NCBI GenBank assembly: GCA_963674945.2
Contig: CAXXWQ010000001.1
Span: 352,001 to 416,000, forward strand
Length of the DNA: 64,000 nt
Direction of reading: 5' to 3'
Source of the DNA: an uncultured Desulfosarcina sp.
GTDB taxonomy: Bacteria > Desulfobacterota > Desulfobacteria > Desulfobacterales > Desulfosarcinaceae
Shown here: piece by piece, positions 18,821 through 32,898 of the stretch
How the letters are laid out: every line of letters starts with the position of its first letter
Position numbering within the stretch: the first letter of the stretch is position 1
Program-made: the position numbers and the translations under genes
The notes under the pieces: model-generated
The model's input: only the letters and a program-made list of their open reading frames with translations
Told to the model about the DNA's origin: nothing
Databases searched by the model: none

Positions 18821-20080
18821 TCACATCTTGTACTCAAGGCCCACAAAATACTGAATTACTTCTTGGCCGACGGATCTTTCATATACTCCCATGGGCTCGC
18901 CGTTTGTCTTCGGATCTCCAGTGTGATGGGTATATCCAAGGCCCAGTATGAAAGACCAACGTGGAATGGGGCGCCACTGCGTACCCATGTTGATGGTCCA
19001 GTTATCGTAAAATGACGTGGTTGCGAGTGAATACCCTTCGTCGGGAACGCCAATCTCATTATAGAGAATACCGCCGATCAGTTCCCATTCAGGCGTAAGC
19101 TGGTATTCGACGAATCCTTGTATCTCATAGCCGTTGTCCCACTTGTCCGTGAGCGGTTCGTCGCTCCCGTTAATGCCTTTTTGCCAGAAATAGAGGAAAC
19201 CGCCACCGATTTTAAGTGCAGGCGTGAGTTGATAACTCCAACCCGAAAAGAAGGCTGCAGGCAAATCGTCGTGCATTTCCGCCCCATTGACGGTTCCGGA
19301 GTTGTCGCCTTGTTTCACATCCGCCTTTATCTTGATGCTGACCCTCGGGTCGTATCGCAGACCGAGTTTGAACTTATCATGTTTGAAAAGCATGCAAAGC
19401 GAGTGACCGACTCCCCAGCCCCCCCACGTCTGGTCCATTTTTACACTCGCAAGTTCTTGGCCGATATTCTGGATGATCAATGTCGTTTCACCCTCCCTGA
19501 AATTCATCGCATAAACCGCCCGTATCGCATAGCCTAATGAAAACATATCATTTATCGCCCAGGCGCCTCCCATCGAAAGGGCGCCTTTGCCGCCGGCAAA
19601 ATCAAATTCCTGATTCTCGGCCGTAATGGTTTGACCAAGGGCAGCGGAGGCTTGTTCCGCCGCATAATCAAAACCGGGAAATCGGTCAAAAGAGCCACCG
19701 CCATTGCCTCCGGGAAAAGAAAGGGTAAAGAAACCGGCCCAATTGTTTTTCTTATACGTTGCTGCAAAGTCGGGAATTAACCCCAAGGCTTTTTGCTCAT
19801 ATACCTTTCCGGTATCAACATCGGTAAGCTCAACAACACTTGGAGATATCATCGCGGATAAGTGAAAATGCTGGCCATCATCCATATACGCCGCGCCTGC
19901 CGGATTGTTAAGCACAGTGTCCGCATCTTCCGTTTCCGCATATCGTCCGCCACCACTAAGATACGCCTGTGCGCTCTGGGATGAAATGTTTCTGGCCCCG
20001 CACCCTGCCGAGGCATTGCCGGTGGTGAATAACAATGCTGCCATGGCCAAAATACCAACCTTCGCAAGATTTACGCTCAT
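18821..20080 (-). CDS. OmpP1/FadL-family outer-membrane transporter
   Basis: Probable start MSVNLAKVG (GGAGG RBS) rather than 20257; NNPAG motif; alternating beta-strands; ends GLEYKM. Confidence 0.85.
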   Translation of the reverse strand: MSVNLAKVGILAMAALLFTTGNASAGCGARNISSQSAQAYLSGGGRYAETEDADTVLNNPAGAAYMDDGQHFHLSAMISPSVVELTDVDTGKVYEQKALGLIPDFAATYKKNNWAGFFTLSFPGGNGGGSFDRFPGFDYAAEQASAALGQTITAENQEFDFAGGKGALSMGGAWAINDMFSLGYAIRAVYAMNFREGETTLIIQNIGQELASVKMDQTWGGWGVGHSLCMLFKHDKFKLGLRYDPRVSIKIKADVKQGDNSGTVNGAEMHDDLPAAFFSGWSYQLTPALKIGGGFLYFWQKGINGSDEPLTDKWDNGYEIQGFVEYQLTPEWELIGGILYNEIGVPDEGYSLATTSFYDNWTINMGTQWRPIPRWSFILGLGYTHHTGDPKTNGEPMGVYERSVGQEVIQYFVGLEYKM

Positions 20081-20610
20081 CTTCCCCTCCATTTCGATGT
20101 TCTTATGAGTCTGAGGTTCTACAATTCGTCCGGGCCGAATAAAATGACGTAGAACGCAAGCTCCCCTTATTGCATGGGAAGTAGCCAGCCATGGCTGACA
20201 ATCAATGAGAAAACACCTGTTGGGACTGGGCGAAAAAGCAAACCGTGATCGAGGCAACGGTTTAAATGGCTACAGGGCGTAGAGCGGATCTGTTGTTCCG
20301 ACGCCCGGTAAATTTTCAACTGCTGTAGTAACTTTTTAATGGATAGGAACGATTTCTTTGAAAAGCTGTCCGGCGAACCGAAGTTTCCTGCCACAATACG
20401 AGAGAACTGCCGGAGAGAGCATCACGATAAATGGAAGCACAATAGGAGTGAGGGATAGACAGCAACCAGCGCAACAACGGACTTCGGTTTTTCTTTTCAA
20501 AAACAATACTGTTTTGTTTGTAAGCTGTCAATGGTGGTCTCAAAATGGAAGAAAGAGAAAGAAGGCAAGGAGGGGACGTAAACGAAATTGAGCTATCCGC
20601 TCAACCTGGG

Positions 20611-21960
20611 TTAAAAATAGTAGGTGAGCCAAAGGTACGCCTGATCATTGGGGGTAGCTTTGAAGGCCAAACCGTCGGCGTCGACATCGAAACCACCGAA
20701 CTCTGTGCCGGAGGCGCCCCAATGCCATTGGACGCCGAAAATGAGTTGTACGTCGCCACCCGCATCCCAAAGTATCTGGGGCTGGAGCAGCCCGGAGGGA
20801 TCGGCCAGGTTGAAGATGGCCGTCGTATGCCATTGAACCAGGGGATGCAGTTCCACCTGCGCTTGTCCGGCCAGGTAAAACCGGCCGAGGGTAAACAACT
20901 CGCCCCGGAGGATTCTGTCCATGAGCGCATCGCTTTCGAACGCCTGCCCGTAGTCATTGATGCGGCCTACACCGTTATAGTAAAATTCCAGCAACCCGTA
21001 GACATTTTTTCCTGCCCACATCCAGGCATAGTCCAGGTTGGCCACTACCTGGAAAAAATCATCTTCCCGGCTTTCTTCTGTGACATGGGAGTAGACGGCG
21101 TTGACTCTCCAGGCCGCTTCCTTCAGATAGCCGCTGGCACCCAGTGCCCCGATGGCATCATCGAAATGGCGGGCCGCCATGGCGCTGGCTTCCATGGCGC
21201 CGGCAAAGAGGTGAGCCTTCATGGCGTAGGAGGAATTGTCGTCTTCAACGCTCCCGGTGAGCGGATCACGTCGGGGAAGGTAGAGCGTTTGTATCTCGAC
21301 TTCGCCAATGGGGATCTGAACCAGGGCCATGTCATCGCCCACCTTGTAATCGCGCTGCACGGCCGCGGGTGCAAACGGGTTGAACAGGTCCATGGGATTG
21401 AACACCAGGCCATCGCCCCAGGTCAACGCCTGACGTCCTATGCGAAGGGTTCCCCAGTCGGGTGTCCAGGTCAGGTTGAGACGATCCAGGCGGTGATATA
21501 TGATGTGATCGTCGGTATCGCTGATCACATGGGTGAGATCCATGAGACGCCGGTCGTCATTGATTGGCTGGTCTGCGAAGACGACGGCTGACGGCGATCC
21601 GGGCAGCATATCCGAAAGCGTCTGTATGGTCTCTCGGGTATCGCCGCCCGCCGCCACCAGCTCGTAATGGGTATCGAAGGTCCAGCGCGATCCGATGTTC
21701 AGTCGGTTTTTCTGCCGCCATTCGGCCTGCCCGTCGATATAGGGACCATCATCCACACGCCCCAATAGGGAATCCTCATCCACCGCAGTCACGGTGCCGA
21801 TGACTCTCGCATGTCCCCCCCACCGTATTTCGATTCCCGGGATGATATCCGGTGTCGATTCACTCGTGGTTTCGGCGCGTGCGGCAGGCCGCGAGAAGAT
21901 CAGGGCGGGCAGAACGCAGGCGGCGCCGAACAGGACAATGGCAAAAGACGTTTTTCTCAT
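20611..21960 (-). CDS. Putative outer-membrane beta-barrel protein of the ABC operon
   Basis: Signal peptide; HRLDRLNL...LRIGRQALTWG...FNPMDLFNPF; terminal YYF. Confidence 0.75.
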   Translation of the reverse strand: MRKTSFAIVLFGAACVLPALIFSRPAARAETTSESTPDIIPGIEIRWGGHARVIGTVTAVDEDSLLGRVDDGPYIDGQAEWRQKNRLNIGSRWTFDTHYELVAAGGDTRETIQTLSDMLPGSPSAVVFADQPINDDRRLMDLTHVISDTDDHIIYHRLDRLNLTWTPDWGTLRIGRQALTWGDGLVFNPMDLFNPFAPAAVQRDYKVGDDMALVQIPIGEVEIQTLYLPRRDPLTGSVEDDNSSYAMKAHLFAGAMEASAMAARHFDDAIGALGASGYLKEAAWRVNAVYSHVTEESREDDFFQVVANLDYAWMWAGKNVYGLLEFYYNGVGRINDYGQAFESDALMDRILRGELFTLGRFYLAGQAQVELHPLVQWHTTAIFNLADPSGLLQPQILWDAGGDVQLIFGVQWHWGASGTEFGGFDVDADGLAFKATPNDQAYLWLTYYF

Positions 21961-21972
21961 TTTTTAAAGCCG

Positions 21973-22668
21973 TCAACGATCCACTTTGTTTTGATCACTT
22001 TCGATTCGACCATCACGAATCATGACGATACGGCGCGCGAAATCCATGACCATCTGGTCATGGGTGGAAAAGATGAAGGTAACCTGGCGTTCCCGGTTCA
22101 TCCGACGCATCAACTGAAGGAGCTTTTCGCCGGTTTTGGAGTCCAGGTTGGCCGTTGGTTCGTCGGCCAATACGATGAATGGGTTGGAGACAATCGCGCG
22201 GGCCACGGCCACCCGTTGCTGTTGCCCGCCGGACAGCTCGGCGGGTCGGCGGTCGTATTTACCGGCCAGCTCGACCGTATCCAGGATCTTGCGTGCCCGT
22301 TTTCTGCGCTCAGCGGCGGGTATGCCCTGCAGCAGCATGACATACTCCACATTTTCCGCGGCCGAGAGTACCGGGATCAGATTGTAGGACTGGAAGATGA
22401 ATCCGATCCGGTACAACCGCAGGTCCGCCATCTGTGACCTGGAAAGGTCGGCATAGGCCTGACCGTCCACACAAATGGTTCCACCGTTCGGTTCATCCAA
22501 TCCGCCGATCAGGTTGAGCAAGGTGGTCTTGCCCGAGCCCGACGGTCCGGCCAGGGCGATAAATGCACCGGCCGCCACCGACAGGTCGACGTTTGCCAGG
22601 GCTTTGACCGTCACCTTGCCCTGTTGATAGGTCTTCGATACCCCTTCACATTCCACGATTGCCGTCAT
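21973..22668 (-). CDS. ABC transporter ATP-binding protein (LolD/MacB-like)
   Basis: GPSGSGKT, LSGGQQQRVAVARA, ADEPTANLD, FSTHD; probable start MTAIVEC. Confidence 0.93.
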   Translation of the reverse strand: MTAIVECEGVSKTYQQGKVTVKALANVDLSVAAGAFIALAGPSGSGKTTLLNLIGGLDEPNGGTICVDGQAYADLSRSQMADLRLYRIGFIFQSYNLIPVLSAAENVEYVMLLQGIPAAERRKRARKILDTVELAGKYDRRPAELSGGQQQRVAVARAIVSNPFIVLADEPTANLDSKTGEKLLQLMRRMNRERQVTFIFSTHDQMVMDFARRIVMIRDGRIESDQNKVDR

Positions 22669-22725
22669 TGTCTTTTCTCTCTTCTTATTCCTGAGGTGTA
22701 GAAAACATGGTCCTCTGGACAAGGC

Positions 22726-22907
22726 CAGCGTTTATTGGCGCTGCCGTAGGGTTGTTACAAGAATCCAGGAGTCAGAATTCAGAATACAGAATCAGGAATT
22801 CGCCTTCGGCTCGATCCATTTTATTTAATCGGTGGAGCAAGGCGACATCAGATTCATTCTGGCTCCTGAATTCTGGCTTCTGGCTCCTGTGGCTTTTAGT
22901 GATCGCA
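22726..22907. repeat. Intergenic ~180-bp palindromic repeat, copy 1
   Basis: CAGGAGTCAGAATTCAGAAT...ATTCTGGCTCCTGAATTCTGGCTTCTGGCTCCTG; near-identical to 24262-24443. Confidence 0.9.
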
Positions 22908-22985
22908 ACGTATACCCCTTAAAAGGGGAGCCCAAAGCCGGCCCTCTGGACCCGAATTTTACTCCCCGTTTCGCAACACATAGGA

Positions 22986-24209
22986 TCAATGGTGGACCAT
23001 TGCTTGCACCGGCGTAAACCGGGCCGCCTTTACCGCCGGGTAGAGGCAGACCAACAAACCCAGCAGAAGGACCACCATATTGGCATTAATCAGATCTTTG
23101 GCCAGGATTTTGGGGATAATCACTCTGGCCATTCCGGCATACTCCGCGCCTTTGGCCAGGGCCGACAAGTCAATGCCATGAAAGGAGAGGGCCCAGCAGC
23201 TGAGAAGTCCGAGGATATTGCCAATGAGCATCCCCGATAGCAGGATAATTATCGCTTCGGTGAGAATTCCCCGGATGATGCGACCGGGACCCATTCCCAG
23301 CGCTTTAAGCAGGCCGAACTCACGCATGCGTTCGAAGACGGCCATAAGCGTCGTGTTGAGAATGCCAAACCCCATGGCCACGAATACCACCACAAACCAG
23401 ATAAAGATAAACGAGTCGTATATATCGAGGTAGGCTGTAAGAAGCGGCAGCGCCTGCTGCCATGACCGCACGGATAGCTGTTTCCCGGCCAGTTCCTTCT
23501 CGAGCATCTGCGCCGTTTGCACGGCTTTTTCCGGAGCGGGAAGCAAAATGCTGATTTCCGATACGGCCGCTCCCATCTTCAGCATCTTCTGGGCCGACGC
23601 ACGGGCCACGAAGACATAGGCCTTTTCCGTCGCCTCCATTTCAGCCTGAAAAATGCCGACGATACGAAAGGCCTTGGATGCGATTTGGCCGGTTTTGTCC
23701 TGGGTCATCAGGATCAACTTGCGACCCGGCCCGGTTCCAAAACGCCGCGCCAGGGCACCTCCGATCAGGATGGCATGGCTGTCATCGGCTTTCAGATAAC
23801 GCCCTTGGGTGACGGCCGAACCAATGAAGGACAGGGGCTTTTCCATTTGCGGGTCGATGCCCACCAGGGTCACGCTGCCGTTATGACGGGCATTGCTGGC
23901 GATGGCGTTGACCCTCACACGCGAGGCCCAATGGCTTGCCACCGGAAGCAGCCGCGCCAGGGGTTTGGTGATTTCTGCCGGGGCTTCGATGCTGTTGTCG
24001 ATGGATGGGTCGTCGGGATAATTGCGTTGGTGAATTTGGACATGACCGGTCAGGGTATCGATGCCATTTTTGATCATGCCGTCAATGATGCCGCGCATCA
24101 ACGCGCCCAAAAAGACCATGCTCCACAACCCGATGACAACGGCGATAAGGATCACGGCTGTCCGCCTCGGATTGCGCCAGATATTGCGCCAGGCAATTTG
24201 AAGGTCCAT
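22986..24209 (-). CDS. ABC transporter permease (FtsX/LolE-like)
   Basis: IAWRNIWRNPRRT; NTTLMAVFERMREFGLLKALG. Confidence 0.92.
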   Translation of the reverse strand: MDLQIAWRNIWRNPRRTAVILIAVVIGLWSMVFLGALMRGIIDGMIKNGIDTLTGHVQIHQRNYPDDPSIDNSIEAPAEITKPLARLLPVASHWASRVRVNAIASNARHNGSVTLVGIDPQMEKPLSFIGSAVTQGRYLKADDSHAILIGGALARRFGTGPGRKLILMTQDKTGQIASKAFRIVGIFQAEMEATEKAYVFVARASAQKMLKMGAAVSEISILLPAPEKAVQTAQMLEKELAGKQLSVRSWQQALPLLTAYLDIYDSFIFIWFVVVFVAMGFGILNTTLMAVFERMREFGLLKALGMGPGRIIRGILTEAIIILLSGMLIGNILGLLSCWALSFHGIDLSALAKGAEYAGMARVIIPKILAKDLINANMVVLLLGLLVCLYPAVKAARFTPVQAMVHH

Positions 24210-24261
24210 GGTGGAACATCCTTTTCATTGCGGTGCAGAAAATCGGTCTTCTGCACTAAGT

Positions 24262-24443
24262 CAGCGTTTATTGGCTCTGCTGTATGATTGTTACAAGAAT
24301 CCAGGAGTCAGAATTCAGAATTCAGAATCAGGCATTCGCCTTCGGCTCGATCTATTTTATGCAATCGATGGAGCGAAGCGACATCAGGTTCACTCTGGCT
24401 CCTGAATTCTGGCTTCTGGCTCCTGTGGCTTTTAGTGATCGCA
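24262..24443. repeat. Intergenic ~180-bp palindromic repeat, copy 2
   Basis: Same orientation and structure as 22726-22907. Confidence 0.9.
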
Positions 24444-24497
24444 GTGTATCCTCCTTTCCAGCGGATCTTCTATAACCGTATTTTCCCTGCGATACCG

Positions 24498-25763
24498 TCA
24501 TCTTTGCCGCATGGCCTCCACAGGCGAAAGATGCCTGATCTTGAATGCCGGATAAAGCGCCGCCATCAAGGTGATGAGAAATACGGCTCCCGGACCGACC
24601 GTTATTGAAATCAATGTTAATTGCGGGTAAAGAACAGTGGGGATGCCGAACTGACGAGAAATTTCAGAAGCATCACCCATGTTGATCCCATGAACCATGA
24701 AATAGCCGGTGACCAGACATCCGATCACCATGCCGGAAACCACACCTACCAGGGTCATACCGATGGACTCGGTCAGTACCAGGCGGGTTAAACGATTGGG
24801 CCGGGTTCCCATGGCCATCATCACGCCGAATTCGTAAGTACGCTCCAAAACGGCCATTAAAAAAGTATTGAGAATACTGAAGGCCACTACCATGATGAGG
24901 ATCAGGTAGAAGATCGCGCCGCTGATCAGGTCCATGCCGATGGCCTGTTTGAGGCCCGGCATCAATGCCTCCCAGTCCAGGACCACAAGGGGCGGCCGGT
25001 TGGCAAGGTTTTCCAGGGCCGGCAAGAGCGCAGCTGTAATGGAATCGGTGTCTCCCAGCCGGTTGCCGACGATGACGATTTCATGCACGCCGTCGTCCAT
25101 GGCGAAAATTTCCTGAAACCGCGAAAGGGGGATTTGAATGGCGCTTCTGTCCAATTCGTCCAGGCCGGAATTGGTGATGCCGTGTACGCGAACCACCGTG
25201 GCGGCGATGGAGCCGTCACGTCCCTGGCCCAGCAAGGTGAGTTCGTCCCCCACGCCCACCTTCAGGTTGCGTGCCAGAAGGTGGCCGACCAGGGCATTTG
25301 GCAGGCCCTCTACTCCGGCATCCGTATCCAGATACTCACCCTGGCGAACGATGTCGGCCAGGGTCGAAACCTGTTTTTCCGCTTCCGGATCGATTCCTTC
25401 CACCATGACGCCGAAGGTGCGGGCCCGGGAGGATATCAGGGCAAACGCCCTGGCGCGCGGGGCATAGGCCTTGACCTGGGGGATGGCCTCCAGCGCCTGT
25501 TCGACGGGCAGCGGATCGGGGATTGCCAGGCGGATCTCCTTATCCTCCTGATAACCGCTGACCTGAACCTGCAGATGGCCGGTGTGAACCTTTACCGAGG
25601 CATTGATCATGGTCTCGTAGCTGCCAAGCTGAAACGATAGCATGAAAACCAATAGAGTACAGGCAAAGGCAATGGCCGTGACAGTGAGAAGGGTCCGCCG
25701 GGGATTGCGCCACATATTGCGCCAGGCCATTTTGACGTTCATTGTAACGTCCGGGGCAACCAT
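24498..25763 (-). CDS. ABC transporter permease (FtsX/LolE-like)
   Basis: MAWRNMWRNPRRT; NTFLMAVLERTYEFGVMMAMG. Confidence 0.92.
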   Translation of the reverse strand: MVAPDVTMNVKMAWRNMWRNPRRTLLTVTAIAFACTLLVFMLSFQLGSYETMINASVKVHTGHLQVQVSGYQEDKEIRLAIPDPLPVEQALEAIPQVKAYAPRARAFALISSRARTFGVMVEGIDPEAEKQVSTLADIVRQGEYLDTDAGVEGLPNALVGHLLARNLKVGVGDELTLLGQGRDGSIAATVVRVHGITNSGLDELDRSAIQIPLSRFQEIFAMDDGVHEIVIVGNRLGDTDSITAALLPALENLANRPPLVVLDWEALMPGLKQAIGMDLISGAIFYLILIMVVAFSILNTFLMAVLERTYEFGVMMAMGTRPNRLTRLVLTESIGMTLVGVVSGMVIGCLVTGYFMVHGINMGDASEISRQFGIPTVLYPQLTLISITVGPGAVFLITLMAALYPAFKIRHLSPVEAMRQR

Positions 25764-25764
25764 G

Positions 25765-26535
25765 TCATTCCCGCCTTCCGGTTTTCAGTGCATTGATGGT
25801 AAACAGCCGATCGGGAAGATTTTCGGAAAACGAGATGGAATGGTATCGCAAAAGGGTGTATTGATCGGTCTTATCTGTTTCCTGCATTTTCCAGATTTTG
25901 GGGAACATGCGGCCTCCCATCATCTGGATGTCGTGGGCGGTCATGCGTTTGACCGACATCCGGTCTTCGTCGAAAAATTCCTGCTCGATCAGAACATGAT
26001 CGTCGCGGATTCTGCTGATCTGCATGCCCCAGACAACCGGTGCGTCCGGCTTGGGAATGGATTTGATTACATAGACCACATGGCCATCGCTGGTCTCGGT
26101 GTCCATCAGGCTATGGTCGTAATCATTGAGAATGCTGTCGCTTTTGGCCAGATCGTTGTTCGAGAAATCAGATCCCATCCAGCTTTGGGACATCATCGCC
26201 GGCGGAAGCTTGATGACCCGGTTGACTTTAGGGTTGAAGGTCCACATGTCGATTCCGTCCTTCAGCGTGCCGTTTCCCTCATCCTTGGCAGGGGCCGTGA
26301 TACGGATCAAGCTTTTGTCCGTTCCCTTGGTCCAGCCGACCATGCGCATGCTGCGCTCCCAGTTGGGGCGGTGGATCACCATTTCCACATCGGCCTTGGA
26401 TGCCTTGCCGCGATAATGGTCGAAGCTGGCCTGGATCAGCTTCGCCGGGTCCAATGATGCGTCGCCGGCCGCACATGGTGTCGTCGCGGGAGACATCCCC
26501 AACAATAACCCGATGAGTATCCACAAAAAGCGCAT
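25765..26535 (-). CDS. Outer-membrane lipoprotein-sorting (LolA-like) protein
   Basis: Signal peptide; SLIRITAPAKDEG...MSQSWMGSDFSNNDL. Confidence 0.88.
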   Translation of the reverse strand: MRFLWILIGLLLGMSPATTPCAAGDASLDPAKLIQASFDHYRGKASKADVEMVIHRPNWERSMRMVGWTKGTDKSLIRITAPAKDEGNGTLKDGIDMWTFNPKVNRVIKLPPAMMSQSWMGSDFSNNDLAKSDSILNDYDHSLMDTETSDGHVVYVIKSIPKPDAPVVWGMQISRIRDDHVLIEQEFFDEDRMSVKRMTAHDIQMMGGRMFPKIWKMQETDKTDQYTLLRYHSISFSENLPDRLFTINALKTGRRE

Positions 26536-26583
26536 ATTTTCCTCCTGACGATGATAGATGGCATAGGCAATCGCTTTCGCAAG

Positions 26584-27222
26584 TTATCCTTTGATCGATT
26601 CTTGGGCATCGCCCTGTGTATTTGCGCCGATGCCCCGCAACACCACATCCAGAAAACTGCGGGACGTGGCAAGGGCGTCAAATTTCGGATCCAGCCAGGC
26701 TTGCAGTATCAGGGCATCCCAGGTTCCGACCAATGCCGCGGCGATGTTTTCGGCATCGATCGTTGCAGGGACTTCGCCGACCTGCTGGGCGGAGCGGATC
26801 AGATCGCCGACGATGGCCCTGAGATCCCGATAGCCGTCCTGAAAGACAGACTTGAAAGACTCCCGGCTTGGTGAGGATGCCGTCGCCGACCAGAATTCCA
26901 TGATCAGGGAGTACATTTCGATCTGCTCCAGCCAGGCTTCGATGATGCTGTCCCCCAGCATTCTGATACGTTGCGCGAAGGATTCGCCTGCAGAATCCTT
27001 TGCCTGGGAGAGAATACCGGCAGATTCGGTCATCATCGATTCGAATACGGCAAAAAAAAGGGCTTCCTTGCTGCGAAAGTATTCATAAATGGTTCCCTTG
27101 CCCACCGATGCGGCTTCGGCTACTTCGATGATCCGGGTGGATGCATATCCTTTCTGTGCAAAGACGCGGCGAGCGGCCTGGATGATATCCTGCTTGCGGT
27201 TGGGATCGGCTTTGCGGGGCAT
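26584..27222 (-). CDS. TetR/AcrR-family regulator
   Basis: IIQAARRVFAQKGYASTRIIEVAEAASVGKGTIYEYFRSKEAL. Confidence 0.95.
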   Translation of the reverse strand: MPRKADPNRKQDIIQAARRVFAQKGYASTRIIEVAEAASVGKGTIYEYFRSKEALFFAVFESMMTESAGILSQAKDSAGESFAQRIRMLGDSIIEAWLEQIEMYSLIMEFWSATASSPSRESFKSVFQDGYRDLRAIVGDLIRSAQQVGEVPATIDAENIAAALVGTWDALILQAWLDPKFDALATSRSFLDVVLRGIGANTQGDAQESIKG

Positions 27223-27459: not shown

Positions 27460-28275
27460 TCAATAATGGGTGAGGGAGCCGTCACGCTTTGCTTTGATCA
27501 CGGCCTTTTGAAACAAAACGAGGCTGCTGGGCAAAATAACGATGGAGAAGAGGCAGAGGATCAATATGGTCGGCGCCAGTTGCGAAAGGGAATAGCCGTT
27601 GAGAATCGCCATTCGCATGCCTTCCAGAGAGTGGGTGACCGGCATTGCTTTTGCCGCCGTTTGCAGCCAACCCGGCAGAACGCTGAGCGGGTAATACAAG
27701 CCGCAAATCAAACCGGCCACTTTTACGAAAAGCCATCCGATTGGATCACCCCGTTTTACGATCATGATAAAGCTGGCGGAAATGATACCCAGCCCCGTTG
27801 ATGAAACGATGGTAAGCAGCAAAATGGCAAATGCGGCGGTCAGGTTTGCATGTCCAAGGTCAAGATCGAAGAATAAGGATCCAAAAACAAGATAGATAAT
27901 GACATTGACCGTCGCCCAGAAGAAACCATAGAGGGAAGAGGAAAAAATAATGGTGGGGATACTGGTGGGGGTCACAAGGATCGCTTCCAGGGTGCCGAGC
28001 ATCTGGCCTTCCCGGATAATGCCTGAAAGGCCTGTTATGGAAAAGTTCAGATAGCTGATGAACGCAATGCCGATGAGAACGAATGCAAAGTAGTTGCCCC
28101 CATAAGGTTTAAGGTGCGTTGTTCCGATATCCGCCATGAGCCGGGAGAGAAAAAAGTAGGTCAACACCGAGACGACCATACCCACCATTTGCATGATAAA
28201 TGCGGTTTTGTATGTGGCGTCGCTGATCAGGTCACGGCAGAAGAAAGCTTTCATTTTTCGTAGCAAAATGCTCAT
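27460..28275 (-). CDS. ABC-2 type exporter permease (RiPP cluster)
   Basis: REGQMLGTLEAILVTP; GLYYPLSVLPGWLQ...PVTHSLEGMR. Confidence 0.9.
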   Translation of the reverse strand: MSILLRKMKAFFCRDLISDATYKTAFIMQMVGMVVSVLTYFFLSRLMADIGTTHLKPYGGNYFAFVLIGIAFISYLNFSITGLSGIIREGQMLGTLEAILVTPTSIPTIIFSSSLYGFFWATVNVIIYLVFGSLFFDLDLGHANLTAAFAILLLTIVSSTGLGIISASFIMIVKRGDPIGWLFVKVAGLICGLYYPLSVLPGWLQTAAKAMPVTHSLEGMRMAILNGYSLSQLAPTILILCLFSIVILPSSLVLFQKAVIKAKRDGSLTHY

Positions 28276-28286
28276 TATCGTAATCC

Positions 28287-29300
28287 TTATGCGCTTTTTC
28301 GAATCAGCAACCGGGAGAACGCATCCTCCAATGAAAAATTCGATTCCTGAAACGAAGAGATGCGACCACCCATTGCCAGGATGCTCTCCATAAGCTGGCT
28401 GGCGTTATCTCTTCCACCTGCAATCTCAATTTCAATCTGCGTGTTCGAAAATGGAGTCGTCGTTTCCTTTACCCATGCATTTTGAACGGTCGAGATCGAT
28501 TCTATTTTTTCCAACAAATCCCTTTTGAAGTTATCGATGCCTACGATAAATCGTTTTCGATTCGATAACGTCGCCTTTATTTCTTCGACCGTACCCGTCG
28601 CTTTCACCTTGCCTTTGTCCAGCACGGCAATCCGGTTGCACAGTTGTTCCACTTCGGCCAGATTATGGGTGGCCATCAACACCGTCTTTCCTTCGATTTT
28701 CACCAGTGTGCCCTTGATGAAATTCTTAATCTTCCTTGCAACCATGGGATCGAGTCCGCTGGTCGGCTCGTCCATGATCAGTATATCGGGGTTGGTCAGC
28801 ATGCCGCGGGCAATCGCCAGCATCTTTTTCATGCCCGTCGAATACGTCTTGAACATTTTGTCCCCGTGAGCGGTCAATCCAACCAGATCCAACAGGTATG
28901 AAACCCGATTGTCGACCTCTTTTTGGGGGATGTTGTTGAGTACGGCAAAAAATCGCAGGTTCTGACGACCCGTGAGGCGCCAATAGAAACTTCGTTCATC
29001 ACCGATGACATATCCCAGCTTCGGTTTGACTTTCACAGGATCCTTGCAAACATCCACGCCTTCGATGTATGCGGTCCCTTTGGTGGGCAGTACCAGTGTA
29101 CAGAGGATTTTGATCAGCGTCGTCTTGCCCGCTCCGTTGGAGCCGAGCAGGCCGAACAGATCGCCCCTTTCGACCCGCAGGTCGATCTCCTGCAGGGCGG
29201 TGACGGTCTTTTGCCGAAAGGGATGAAACAACAATTCCCTATACGTCTTTGTTACGGGAAAGACCTTGCTCAGATTGCAAATATGAATCGCGGTAGGCAC
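28287..29300 (-). CDS. ABC exporter ATP-binding protein (RiPP cluster)
   Basis: GSNGAGKTT, YSTGMKK, MDEPTSGLDP, ATHN. Confidence 0.93.
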   Translation of the reverse strand: MPTAIHICNLSKVFPVTKTYRELLFHPFRQKTVTALQEIDLRVERGDLFGLLGSNGAGKTTLIKILCTLVLPTKGTAYIEGVDVCKDPVKVKPKLGYVIGDERSFYWRLTGRQNLRFFAVLNNIPQKEVDNRVSYLLDLVGLTAHGDKMFKTYSTGMKKMLAIARGMLTNPDILIMDEPTSGLDPMVARKIKNFIKGTLVKIEGKTVLMATHNLAEVEQLCNRIAVLDKGKVKATGTVEEIKATLSNRKRFIVGIDNFKRDLLEKIESISTVQNAWVKETTTPFSNTQIEIEIAGGRDNASQLMESILAMGGRISSFQESNFSLEDAFSRLLIRKSA

Positions 29301-29342: not shown

Positions 29343-30569
29343 TCATTTCGTCAGGAAAAGATGACGCGTAAACATTCCATAGCGCCATAACAATTGAAAA
29401 GGCCGGAAAAAGTAGTAAACGTATACTTTCCAAGATGAAGTGGAAATACCGTATCGATAGGACATTTCGGCACGATTGGGGAAAAAGCGACGTTGGAGCA
29501 ATGCGAATTTCCGTCTCCACCTCTTCTCGGACCCGATGCTCACAAGTGATCCTGGAATCGAGTTGGGCTGATCTTTTTGAAAAAGGGTCTTCTCCATCAG
29601 TGCAACCAATGACGGGGCTGTATGCAGCACGGGCCAGGAAATCCGAGTTCCAAGGGGATCGAAAATATTCCTGGCCGTTTGCAAAACGGCGTACGATTCG
29701 CCTTGGATGCCGTAGCGCTTTGCCTCATTGTCAAAAAGCGTCCAATCGATGGATTCACCGGCATGCACCAGGAGACGGTGGATATCAACCAGCCCCCGAA
29801 GCGTTGTTTTTGTCTCACCACTGGAAAACAGATGCAGGCAAAGATGCAAGGCCATATCCGTCCAACCCAGTATCCGGGTCGGGAGGCCGGAAATGCTGGC
29901 GGCGGTCGAACGGCTCCACCAAGCGTCAACGTCCACGTGAATCCTGTTATTGATGTTCCAGTGCAGTTCGACGACCACTGATGTTTCGTCATGAATCATC
30001 GGCGCCAGATGGTGGTGATTCTTTCGGTAGTTCTCCTGAACCTCGATCGAGCTGTCGGTCCGATAACCAAGGCGTTGCAGAAGGTCTCGCGCTCGCGCCA
30101 AATCCCTTTTATGTACCAAGATATCAAGATCCTTATACGCGCGGGCACCGGGGTCATTGTATACCGCCTCGGCCAGGGCGGCCCCTTTCAGGAGAATGGC
30201 GGAAAGCCCCTCATCCCCGAAGGTCCGCAGAATCCGTTTGAGTTCGAAACCCCGGAACATATTCTGGGCAAAATTCTGAAGATACGCGTTTTTCAGCAAC
30301 GCCACCGTTTCCTTCGGGATGTTCAGGTCATCTGCATAACAATGCAGCTGATGATACAACAAGGGACCCAAGCCCAGGGTTTCGGCGCGTCGGAAGACCG
30401 CCTCCCATTTGGATGACGAAGCAAAAAGCCGTCTTGTTTCCATCACCCATTGGTCGTCTTGTGGAAGTTGAAGGGCATGAACGAGTGTTCGATTTTCCCT
30501 GTGGTTGTCCATGGGTTTCCCCCTTACTGTGTAACCGTACCGAGTCGCCCCGTGTATCGGTTTGTCCAA
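29343..30569 (-). CDS. Nucleotidyltransferase (NTP_transf_5-like); start may be 30512
   Basis: ILLKGAALAEAVY..PGARAYKDLDILV; VVELHW; LHLCLH; LVDI. Confidence 0.88.
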   Translation of the reverse strand: MDKPIHGATRYGYTVRGKPMDNHRENRTLVHALQLPQDDQWVMETRRLFASSSKWEAVFRRAETLGLGPLLYHQLHCYADDLNIPKETVALLKNAYLQNFAQNMFRGFELKRILRTFGDEGLSAILLKGAALAEAVYNDPGARAYKDLDILVHKRDLARARDLLQRLGYRTDSSIEVQENYRKNHHHLAPMIHDETSVVVELHWNINNRIHVDVDAWWSRSTAASISGLPTRILGWTDMALHLCLHLFSSGETKTTLRGLVDIHRLLVHAGESIDWTLFDNEAKRYGIQGESYAVLQTARNIFDPLGTRISWPVLHTAPSLVALMEKTLFQKDQPNSIPGSLVSIGSEKRWRRKFALLQRRFFPNRAEMSYRYGISTSSWKVYVYYFFRPFQLLWRYGMFTRHLFLTK

Positions 30570-31033
30570 TGCGGCATGGGATAGCGATAGGTTTCCGTGT
30601 ACGTTGCCGTCATTTCAGGCTCAATTTCCAGAAAGAGATCCTTGTGGTACAACAGCCAGGCGTGACCTTCCAGTTGACCATGGACATCTTTGCCCTCGGC
30701 AAAAGGGAGCCGGATACCAAAACAGATCTGGACCGGCATCCCGATGCCGCGTAAGAAGTGGTAGAGGACAAGGGACCGTTTCAGGCAGGTCTGTTTCCAG
30801 ACACCAATGTTCCATCCCAAAATGAAATCCGTGTATTTTATAATTTTCGCCTCGGTTTGATCCGTACCCGGCGCGGTGGAGGAATTTTTGTTCTCAGGTG
30901 TCAATCGGGCCAGCAGACAAGGCAGGGTATGCCATTTGATCAATGCCGGCAACATCGTAATCAGGGCGAAGATTCGATAAAACAATCGGAAGTCCTGCCA
31001 ACAGGTGATATTTCTTCTCAGTTTGCGTATCAT
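30524..31033 (-). CDS. Lasso-type B2 leader peptidase (transglutaminase-like)
   Basis: TCLKRSLVLYHFLR...ICFGI...EGHAWL, with catalytic Cys and His intact. Confidence 0.9.
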   Translation of the reverse strand: MIRKLRRNITCWQDFRLFYRIFALITMLPALIKWHTLPCLLARLTPENKNSSTAPGTDQTEAKIIKYTDFILGWNIGVWKQTCLKRSLVLYHFLRGIGMPVQICFGIRLPFAEGKDVHGQLEGHAWLLYHKDLFLEIEPEMTATYTETYRYPMPHWTNRYTGRLGTVTQ

Positions 31034-31034
31034 T

Positions 31035-32006
31035 CTAATGCCTCGTCGGAAGATTGGTAATAAGAGAAGATAATTTCGTTGGATCCTCCAAAAGGTCTAT
31101 CCCTCCCAAAACTTCGAATCCGCATGTACTTTGAACTATGCTCTTCACCATTTCCAGCTGTTGCTTGGCGATAACAGAGTCCGAAGACAGAAGAATTTGT
31201 TTCATGAGCCGTGTAAACATGTCCGTGGGACCCAGGGGAGACAGAACGCTGGTCCGCCGTGAACAGATGCGTGGAAATAGAATCACATCCGGTTCGAGCC
31301 ATTCTATGGGGGCCCCTTTGAAAAATTGCGATACATTCACGGACATTTTTTCTCCATCGGCAAAATCAACGGTTGAGAGAAAATCGAGCTCATCGTAGCG
31401 CCGGCAAATATCCTGGGATACGTGAAAGTCCCGATACCATGGATAGGCCCGGATGACACCAGCCCGGTTGTCTATGAGCAGTGAGTCATCGGATACATAA
31501 TCGAATCCGCTTCGTACAAGGTTGAGGGCGGAGGTGGTTTTACCGCATCCTCCATCGCCGGATATCAGGTAACCGATGCCATGGTAACGAAGGGCTGCGG
31601 CATGCAGGTAAAAGCGCCCGGCCGCTCTCATGGTTTCGATGAGAGGGCCGCTTACCAGGGAACAAATGGTGGACATTTCATTTCGAATCTCCGGTCGGAT
31701 GAAGCAATCGCAACGTCGGGATGCCAGGTCGAACCGGACAATGGAGCCGTCCTTTGCGGTGTAATAGTATCGACTGTCCGCACGGTAGCTTTTCGTAACC
31801 GCCATTTCCACTACGGGCAATGCCTCTTCAGGAAGTCGTGGGGGGGATGACTGGATTTTGACGACAATTGTTATGGGGGCCAACGACGATTCATCGTTTC
31901 CTTTGCACAGAGAATCGAAATATTCTTTCAGTCCGGGATATAACAAGTCCTCACATTCGAGCTTTACAGGAAGTGATTGGACTATGAAGTTATCGTTGAC
32001 CGCCAT
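31035..32006 (-). CDS. HPr-kinase-like P-loop kinase
   Basis: YLHAAAL...LISGDGGCGKTTSA...YVSDD; probable start MAVNDNF after GGAGG. Confidence 0.85.
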   Translation of the reverse strand: MAVNDNFIVQSLPVKLECEDLLYPGLKEYFDSLCKGNDESSLAPITIVVKIQSSPPRLPEEALPVVEMAVTKSYRADSRYYYTAKDGSIVRFDLASRRCDCFIRPEIRNEMSTICSLVSGPLIETMRAAGRFYLHAAALRYHGIGYLISGDGGCGKTTSALNLVRSGFDYVSDDSLLIDNRAGVIRAYPWYRDFHVSQDICRRYDELDFLSTVDFADGEKMSVNVSQFFKGAPIEWLEPDVILFPRICSRRTSVLSPLGPTDMFTRLMKQILLSSDSVIAKQQLEMVKSIVQSTCGFEVLGGIDLLEDPTKLSSLITNLPTRH

Positions 32007-32118
32007 CGTTTCCTCCAACAATGGAAAATAAGTATCGTGTCCGCTGCCATTCGTTTACATCGGTCAATTGGAAAAAGCACCGATATTGTATCTCTACTTC
32101 TTGACGATCCGTTTAACG

Positions 32119-32184
32119 ATCTGTGTTTTGACGGGCACCGTGTCCATCCGGAAAGAAATATTATTAACTCCCGGATGGACACGG
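32119..32184 (-). terminator. Stem-loop after the second precursor gene (attenuator or mRNA stabiliser)
   Basis: CCGTGTCCATCCGG ... CCGGATGGACACGG inverted repeat between the precursor and kinase genes. Confidence 0.55.
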
Positions 32185-32209: not shown

Positions 32210-32347
32210 TTACGCTTTCGTCGTGGTAAAAGGTCCGTCATCGATGACTGAAACGTCGCGACGATAGCATCCCAACTGCAGCGTCACTTTGTCCAACGGT
32301 TGTTCACATTTTTTCATTTCGGGTTTGATGAACTCTTTTTTCTGCAT
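32210..32347 (-). CDS. RiPP precursor peptide A2 (45 aa)
   Basis: MQKKEFIKPEMKKCEQPLDKVTLQLGCYRRDVSVIDDGPFTTTKA with AAGGAG RBS; paralogue of A1. The ORF track over-extends the start. Confidence 0.85.
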   Translation of the reverse strand: MQKKEFIKPEMKKCEQPLDKVTLQLGCYRRDVSVIDDGPFTTTKA

Positions 32348-32439
32348 GTTTCTACTCTCCTTTTTGAAATAGTCGGGTTTTAGAAGAACCGGAAATAAAG
32401 ATTGTCCCTTTCCGGATGGACACAAACAGATGCTACGCC

Positions 32440-32574
32440 TTACCCTTTGGCCGGATCAAAAGGGCCGTCCTGGATGGGTTGTTGGGGACGATAGCAACCC
32501 AGCTGCAGGGTCACTTTGTCCAACGGTTGTTCACATTTTTTCATTTCGGGTTCGATAAACTCTCTTTTTTGCAT
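32440..32574 (-). CDS. RiPP precursor peptide A1 (44 aa, not in the ORF track)
   Basis: Manual translation MQKREFIEPEMKKCEQPLDKVTLQLGCYRPQQPIQDGPFDPAKG*, with AAGGAG RBS. Confidence 0.85.
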   Translation of the reverse strand: MQKREFIEPEMKKCEQPLDKVTLQLGCYRPQQPIQDGPFDPAKG

Positions 32575-32625: not shown

Positions 32626-32898
32626 TTATGCGGTTGTGATCAATCCCTCCTCTTCCAGTCGATGGGTAAATTGTAATACACTGTCGAACGCATTTTGCTC
32701 ATCCACTTCGAAAGAATCGAGAAGGGAATCGACAATCTGGGACACATGCATATTCTTAAGGTAACCATTCCAGATATGCAGACTGGATTCATTGATATGA
32801 TAGTAGTATTTCGTTTCAACATCCAAGAGTACGGCACCGTCATCCAGTTCCGTACAGACCACCGTCGGTTTCACTTGGTAGTTTTGATTTCGTTGCAT
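32626..32898 (-). CDS. PqqD-family RiPP recognition element (B1-like)
   Basis: VVCTELDDGAVLLDVETKYYYHINESSLHIW...FEVD...LEEEGLI; probable start MQRNQ (GGGGAG RBS, 90 aa). Confidence 0.9.
   Translation of the reverse strand: MQRNQNYQVKPTVVCTELDDGAVLLDVETKYYYHINESSLHIWNGYLKNMHVSQIVDSLLDSFEVDEQNAFDSVLQFTHRLEEEGLITTA

Follow-up and report, generated by a model that had tools for sequence, protein, structure and literature searches.

The 64,000-nucleotide window analyzed here (contig CAXXWQ010000001.1 of an uncultured Desulfosarcina sp., positions 352,001 to 416,000) carries a cassette for peptides made on ribosomes and modified after translation (RiPPs), whose genes lie on one strand in the order RiPP recognition element (RRE), precursor A1, precursor A2, hairpin, kinase, B2 leader peptidase, NTP_transf_5 protein, ABC ATPase, and ABC-2 permease. 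The sequences point to a B2-dependent, cyclase-free phosphopeptide system whose precursors may offer a tyrosine as acceptor. The product is very probably linear and not a lasso peptide, and Tyr5 of the core is probably the modified residue. We lean slightly toward the complete route, in which linear peptides would be phosphorylated on Tyr5 by the kinase, capped by the transferase, and exported. The chances are about even that the kinase is an HprK/PEPCK-fold peptide tyrosine kinase and that A1 and A2 found a linear RiPP branch marked by sugar- or nucleotide-capped phosphotyrosine. The original prediction, made from the sequence alone, overlooked that a hydroxyl residue, Tyr in this case, is conserved around core position 5 and that it is connected with the adjacent kinase and nucleotidyltransferase.

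Tandem precursors and the hydroxyl residue of their cores

Precursor A1 (32440..32574, minus strand) comprises 44 amino acids (aa), divided into a predicted 23-aa leader (with F-18, P-15, M-13, and T-2) and a 21-aa core, and A2 (32210..32347, minus) comprises 45 aa with the same leader arrangement and a 22-aa core. The sole hydroxyl residue of the A1 core is Tyr5; the A2 core has Tyr5 as well, together with Ser10 and a Thr run close to its end. As had been noticed beforehand, the tandem precursors differ at two of their first 29 residues (residues 4 and 8) and diverge thereafter with the exception of DGPF, and the ribosome-binding region is duplicated, too (129 nt upstream, 88% identity, spacing of 227). 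The first 29 codons are separated by five synonymous and two non-synonymous changes, which, small as the numbers are, fits selection on the coding sequence. Unitigs from two public runs, both from one study and one of them possibly the window's own source, run from the A1 core into the A2 leader with a depth that is normal, and the tandem is thus not an assembly artefact. Tandem precursors with a common leader and unlike cores were also found in other loci (two in L043, four in L076, and four in L083), so duplication can be regarded as a normal trait of the family. The claim that one of the two genes was unannotated did not survive, because the exact A1 and A2 peptides are both already present in the protein collection (NCBI and ENA sources). 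Neither peptide matches a Pfam or NCBIfam model, and a leader-only hidden Markov model (HMM) run against the six-frame translation of the whole genome (148,095 short segments) recovered A1 and A2 alone and no distal precursors.

The family was gathered with a precursor profile from the best 120 of 170 proteins, one of which fell outside the leader/core split pattern; with A1 added, 118 distinct cores were obtained. At core position 5, 37 of them have Tyr, 34 have Ser, and 5 have Thr, which makes 76/118 with a hydroxyl residue as compared with 19 ± 4 in shuffles, and 113/118 have Ser, Thr, or Tyr within positions 4–7. Cores devoid of any such residue do not occur (0/118), compared with 29 expected from the tail background. 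Within positions 4–7, Tyr only is found in 33 cores, Ser/Thr only in 69, both in 11, and neither in 5, a near-exclusive alternation for which related cores would inflate any p value. All 16 Ser/Thr-free cores (A1 included) carry Tyr at positions 3–7, compared with a Tyr background of 1.5%. The pattern is the same among 74 clustered cores, in which the Ser/Thr-free ones have Tyr at 3–7 in 10/10 cases. Ser at core position 3 was seen in 4/118, and in the seed L093 the first Ser appears only at core position 10.

Leader, kinase, and transferase

The leader had been described as lasso-like, and the homologues bear this out: 115 of the 118 carry F(-18) and every one carries P(-15), with RRE and B2 genes adjacent. 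The family leader reads FxEPxLxK[C/H/Y]ExxLDxVT, with Phe in place of the Tyr/Trp of the [Y/W]xxPxL motif in 115/118, and T(-2) occurs in 118/118, a count that the split pattern itself demanded. RRE, transglutaminase-like peptidase, leader motif, and Thr(-2), as expected of lasso peptides, are all present. At leader position -10, Cys accompanies 26 Tyr cores, 7 cores with both residue types, 4 Ser/Thr cores, and 1 with none, and His/Tyr goes with Ser/Thr cores in 63/75; this correlation may come from kinship only.

The stand-alone RRE (PqqD/B1; 32626..32898, minus) is 90 aa long from its likely start, as is that of L043, and its longest open reading frame (ORF) extends to 32991. It matches PF05402 (E 4.7e-13) and, in profile searches, TbiB1, TfuB1, 9x90_B, and 9x8z_B. 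The predicted RRE–A1 complex scored 0.45 (best control 0.01), with contacts agreeing between runs to at least 91% and a partner predicted local distance difference test (pLDDT) value of at least 52. The mark applied to this score was reached by 116/157 solved and 2/215 mismatched pairs, at values of at most 0.60 by 18 solved pairs and both mismatched ones. As similar complexes have already been solved, the prediction may reproduce known structures, and it lends weak support to an RRE–A1 complex. The transglutaminase-like B2 peptidase (30524..31033, minus) has intact Cys83 and His124, which are invariant in 55/55 homologues, and exceeds the cutoffs of PF13471 and NF033537; the role of Thr(-2) in B2 substrates is taken from PMC10885120.

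The HprK-like peptide kinase (31035..32021, minus) matches PF07475 slightly below the cutoff (E 7e-8), and its residues H140, G155, K161, T162, D178, and D179 are invariant in 19/19 kinases. Its model shows a PEPCK/HprK fold (pLDDT 87), the alignment to solved HprK has no gaps over the stretch of the substrate-site residues given below, and the motif spacing equals that reported for BsfK (PMC10368454). For the NCBIfam families HPr-rel-A, HPr-rel-B, and SynChlorMet, kinase and PqqD scores remained under all cutoffs (bits versus cutoff: TIGR04352 28.6/200, TIGR04355 40.2/200, TIGR04249 20.6/125, and TIGR04248 30/100). The related kinases LppK (PMC13381572) and BsfK (PMC10368454) are reported to phosphorylate an internal core residue before cleavage.

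Kinases adjoining Tyr cores have Gly157 in 13/13 unambiguous cases, along with Ser180, Pro194, and mostly His200, compared with Ser157, Ser194, Thr198, Asn200, and Arg203 in 10/11 kinases of Ser cores. Position 157 is Ser/Thr in 4/4 outgroup kinases and in the solved HprKs of the alignment, and the HprK substrate site is described as including His140, Ser157, Asp179, and Arg180 (PMC9399212). The tree data reject a single clade holding all 11 Ser-core kinases (approximately unbiased test, p-AU 1e-4, with L076 as outlier); a single clade of 13 Ser-signature kinases, a group picked after viewing the alignment, is compatible with the data (p 0.45). We regard this putative Tyr/Ser signature as a lead and not as proof.

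The NTP_transf_5 protein (29343..30569, minus; likely start 30512), a nucleotidyltransferase-fold protein resembling PsmN, LppN, and BsfN, matches PF14907 (E 5e-56), and G129, R143, D147, and D149 (DxD motif) are invariant in 34/34. Its model is ANT(2'')-like (Z 12.5, root-mean-square deviation 3.2, 167 aligned residues), and Foldseek returned no match for it at E ≤0.001. PsmN is likewise reported to model on ANT(2'') and to act on peptide that is already phosphorylated (PMC6993621).

In the route that we propose, the RRE would bind the FxxPxM leader common to both precursors, so that one enzyme set could serve two variable cores. The kinase would then act on the hydroxyl group found near position 5 of the core (Tyr5 in A1 and A2) and phosphorylate it, possibly repeatedly, as suggested by family conservation and the biochemistry of homologues. 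Subsequently, B2 would cut after Leu(-1), guided by Thr(-2), and the freed core, starting with Gln, would cyclize to pyroglutamate. Predicted monoisotopic masses of the freed cores are 2314.12 Da (A1) and 2441.20 Da (A2), or 2377.06 and 2504.14 Da once pyroglutamate and a single phosphate are counted in. The weakest step is the addition of a hexose or nucleotide to the phosphate by the NTP_transf_5 protein, for which PsmN-dependent hexosylation in pseudomycoidin may serve as comparison. Finally, the ABC-2 pair would export the product, and no macrolactam would be made. That the hypervariable tails make the product a strain-specific signal or antagonist is a guess.

Probable linear product, known systems, and competing explanations

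The genome (98.7% complete) encodes a single B2, and contig C1 has no Asn_synthase (PF00733) match. All four full-length Asn_synthase matches of the genome lie on other contigs, distant from any B2, and are ordinary glutamine-hydrolysing AsnB proteins (TIGR01536 over cutoff), three of them among polysaccharide or glycosyltransferase genes; a distal cyclase was rejected on these grounds. Among 114 B2 loci, an AsnB-like gene occurs nearby in one (L076) and in 0/46 loci of at least 10 kb, and the gene in L076, which lies on the opposite strand next to cores of 8–9 aa, is an ordinary AsnB. Pfam scans of 70 (41 + 29) selected unassigned large ORFs gave no Asn_synthase, nor was a full-length match found in G840 and G913 (cassette carriers with incomplete genomes) or in G848 (a complete genome with a sister cassette, see below). 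The NF033535 cutoff test is weak alone, as divergent cyclases may score under the cutoff.

The cores themselves speak for a linear product. Their median length is 13.5, the shortest has 4 residues, and 48/118 are under 13 aa; among cores of at least 12 aa, Asp/Glu is found at positions 7–9 in 35/78 compared with 33/78 at positions 10–12. Short cores and the lack of an Asp/Glu excess at 7–9 over 10–12 together argue that these are not lasso precursors. Asp/Glu at 7–9 followed by a tail long enough to thread is present in 31/118 family cores, including A2 and excluding A1. It was correctly predicted that A1, having no Asp/Glu at core positions 7–9, is unable to make a standard lasso, and cleavage before Gly or Cys instead would place its Asp at position 11 or 10 and give no lasso ring either. 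Asp8 of A2, to which the original prediction had drawn attention, is indeed present, but given the position counts above it is no evidence for a lasso and is incidental. The Gln start, which had been called atypical, is ordinary in this family, whose cores most often begin with Gly (36) or Gln (27; n = 118).

The closest functional parallel is the linear polyphosphorylated peptides, LPP (lppA-K-B-S-D-N; Popov et al. 2026, PMC13381572), the first linear phosphorylated RiPPs described, reported there from Bacillota only and with the final product unsolved. Both systems have a stand-alone RRE along with an HprK-like kinase, NTP transferase, and exporter, lack a cyclase, and employ one to three precursors with a conserved leader, a variable core, and a hydroxyl acceptor close to the core N-terminus. 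LPP uses a SpI/SipW-like serine peptidase and an MsbA-type exporter, whereas the window encodes a cysteine B2 peptidase and a DrrAB-type exporter, with no S26 (SpI/SipW-type) peptidase gene between RRE and permease. Moreover, the LPP leader YxxPxVLxHQxIxFET differs from FxxPxM..LDxVT, and the LPP acceptor is Ser3 (S3T and S3Y are reported as not phosphorylated) in contrast to the predicted Tyr5 and the Ser-free A1 core. The cassette thus works like LPP but falls outside LPP by peptidase type, leader, and acceptor. The phosphorylated lasso cluster bsf of Bradymonas sediminis (PMC10368454) is alike in A, B1, B2, kinase, nucleotidyltransferase, exporter, and His/Gly/Lys/Asp-Asp spacing, and RRE-assisted phosphorylation of an internal core residue is described for it; it differs by a cyclase, Ile(-2), and Ser3, with S3Y reported as not phosphorylated. 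Paeninodin and pseudomycoidin (PadeK, PsmK, and PsmN; PMC9266682, PMC6993621) have the K-B1-B2-N-D set in common with the window, and PsmN and the window's transferase are both ANT(2'')-like, but a cyclase is present and the C-terminal Ser is modified, whereas 10/118 family cores end in Ser. The deltaproteobacterial clusters listed in PMC4289311 all bear a cyclase, and literature searches whose coverage excluded most subscription journals turned up, as judged from titles and summaries, no paper on B2 cassettes lacking a cyclase or on RiPP kinases that act on tyrosine.

An uncharacterized sister cassette is also cyclase-less (kinase, radical SAM, RRE, B2, transferase) and shares with the window a B2 of 37–47% identity, a related leader, and Ser/Thr at a similar core position. 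It differs by the added radical SAM enzyme, short Phe-rich cores (GFFG(S/T)FxP), and a kinase in a separate clade. It was seen in L015, L020, L023, L025, L026, L029, L030, and others, with leaders that have the FxEPKL motif twice in tandem, and among named loci it is frequent in anammox bacteria.

Several observations weigh against the proposed route. Both characterized internal-site kinases, LppK and BsfK, are reported to fail on Ser3Tyr variants, so activity on Tyr would be a novelty. Kinship confounds the kinase signature, for which the tree offers two changes and two independent pairs (p 1 in a sign test). In L076, the kinase carries Tyr-type residues although all neighboring cores are of the Ser-only kind, and L176 combines Ser-type kinase residues with a core bearing Tyr3 and Ser6, a locus that was first labelled Tyr and dropped as ambiguous after its residues were known. 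Core columns formed part of the profile with which the 118 cores were collected; in a leader-only HMM check, 13/13 and 10/10 further non-seed precursors had Ser or Tyr at positions 3–8, and among the latter ten L171 and L175 are without Ser/Thr. The cleavage site after Leu(-1) is itself inferred. Furthermore, lppN could be deleted from a heterologous host without consequence (PMC13381572), which makes the product of the transferase uncertain. Asp/Glu at 7–9 was observed in 51/118 cores compared with 26.5 in whole-core shuffles, a control that was set aside because positions 1–6 are almost free of Asp/Glu. Finally, cores of the Tyr type are the longer ones (median 20.5 aa), 24/44 of them have Asp/Glu at 7–9, and some could form lassos given a cyclase.

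Tyrosine nucleotidylation is carried out by GlnD and GlnE, members of the superfamily of the NTP_transf_5 enzyme. Direct nucleotidylation of Tyr5 in a linear RiPP, in which case the substrate of the kinase would be a small-molecule donor or the group that is added, would agree with the resemblance of the transferase fold to ANT(2''), LnuA, and MenT nucleotidyltransferases, all modifiers of hydroxyl groups, with the reported rejection of Tyr by known RiPP HprK kinases, and with PEPCKs, enzymes of small molecules, being the best fold matches of the kinase model. We consider it rather unlikely, as PsmN is described as acting on an already phosphorylated peptide (PMC6993621), as Tyr sits where sister cores have Ser, the target of homologous kinases, and as Tyr and Ser cassettes differ at substrate-site positions of the kinase, which is the enzyme that this comparison covers. 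It is improbable, too, that Tyr5 of a linear RiPP is a mere recognition or bioactive residue and that the kinase either targets Cys4, an Asp, or the N-terminus freed by cleavage or has no activity in this lineage. The S3Y results for the two homologues, the long branch of the window's kinase clade (0.95–1.0), and the presence of Cys4 and the Asp-Gly-Pro-Phe motif in both A1 and A2 would suit such a role; neither Cys4 nor DGPF is kept in the close relatives L017 and L043, however, Tyr and Ser replace each other at a single position without ever being lost together, and the catalytic residues of the kinase are intact.

Loss of the cyclase from a phosphorylated-lasso cluster, leaving a decayed or silent remnant that yields no product, would account for the rare and patchy occurrence (the kinase profile matched 0/400 sampled genomes of the phylum and 0/400 of the order) and for a few broken relatives (the L018 kinase and the L171 B2), but all window genes are intact with their catalytic residues kept, the cyclase-free order recurs in 28 loci, and the duplicated leader shows more synonymous than non-synonymous changes, which leaves decay with a poor chance. 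Genuine lasso peptides matured by a cyclase encoded elsewhere, with A1 as a non-cyclizable paralogue, seem very improbable: against the lasso-type leader, RRE, B2, Asp8 of A2, the many Tyr-type cores in which an initial Cys or Gly is combined with Asp at 7–9, and the bsf cluster with its equal gene set plus cyclase (PMC10368454) stand the cyclase searches in C1, the four ordinary asparagine synthases, and the three cassette genomes, as well as the 48/118 cores that are too short.

Should Tyr5 phosphorylation hold, a Ser-to-Tyr switch would accompany substrate-site changes in the kinase (P-loop Ser157Gly and neighbors), offering a natural Ser/Tyr pair for studying and engineering leader-guided Tyr phosphorylation. 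Such a leader-guided Tyr kinase, tolerant of hypervariable tails, would represent new HprK-fold chemistry and a tool for site-specific phosphotyrosine peptides. A1, with Tyr5 as its sole core hydroxyl, is a clean test substrate and another route to the function of the NTP_transf_5 family, and the family extends the linear-phosphopeptide logic beyond Bacillota, using a lasso B2 peptidase.

Genomic setting and related cassettes

Between A2, the last precursor gene, and the kinase lies a strong stem-loop (32138..32184, minus; -34.5 kcal/mol, z -6.0), which has an equivalent in L043 (z -7.1), is absent in L017, and likely gives a high ratio of precursor to enzyme mRNA. The cassette ends with the DrrA-like ABC exporter ATPase (28287..29300, minus) and the ABC-2 exporter permease (27460..28275, minus), both kept in cassette relatives. 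Scans for promoters and terminators did no better than chance (9 versus 6.9 and 6 versus 7.4), and no Rfam match was found anywhere in the window. The G+C content of 2-kb windows is 48–51% over 28–34 kb and 53–58% to both sides, and the flanks are unlike those of the closest relative L043, which suggests that the cassette is a mobile unit.

The relatives were retrieved through a B2 alignment (26 loci from genomes and, out of 122 from metagenomes, the best 80) and a kinase profile, which matched 11/351 and 4/120 genomes of two other classes, of which nine neighborhoods were taken; many loci are short or redundant, and for 11 of the window type the flanks span 1.3 kb or more to the left as well as to the right. 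A window-type kinase occurs in 28/114 B2 loci with the cyclase-free order kept, in several phyla where named, and the family reaches sulfate reducers, Nitrospirota, and Dadabacteria. B2 matched 3/64 other genomes of the host family, and the closest named relative is the locus L017 of a Desulfosarcina metagenome-assembled genome (kinase 65% identical), which makes a sulfate reducer of the Desulfobacterales the probable host. No precursor was found near the L081 cassette. The kinase of L018 (1015–2002) is split in two frames with the transferase absent, and the B2 of L171 (8869–9361) is split as well, owing to decay or assembly error.

Some relatives carry additional genes. In L028 (184–1773) and L056 (4396–5985), an RRE fused to an MslH/CapA-like epimerase domain adjoins the cassette together with a pair of GMC oxidoreductases, in L056 between two RRE-plus-precursor copies, and extra tailoring is possible. 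ThiF-YcaO fusion genes are inserted in the B2-transferase-exporter module of L045 (6138–9927), L022 (828–2858), and L061 (479–4000), with a nitroreductase in L061 and a second kinase and RRE in L045; the module is a modular platform. The Tyr-type cassettes of L021, L024, L171, and L174, though not that of the window, lie near sugar-nucleotide, glycosyltransferase, or malectin-domain genes, recalling the link of LPP to capsule loci.

Downstream of the cassette, the region 18821–27222 (minus) encodes a TetR regulator, a LolA-like protein, two permeases, an ABC ATPase, a FadL-like outer-membrane protein, and a 449-aa exported protein that has no Pfam match. The TetR, LolA-like, and ABC genes were ruled out as part of the cassette, as L043 has different neighbors, and the region is probably a separate lipid transport operon. 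Two copies of a palindromic intergenic repeat of about 220 nt (22709–22929 and 24245–24465) lie within an ABC operon; the repeat, which has no Rfam match, gave 84 BLASTN matches in the genome and resembles an element of the repetitive extragenic palindrome (REP)/miniature inverted-repeat transposable element (MITE) type.
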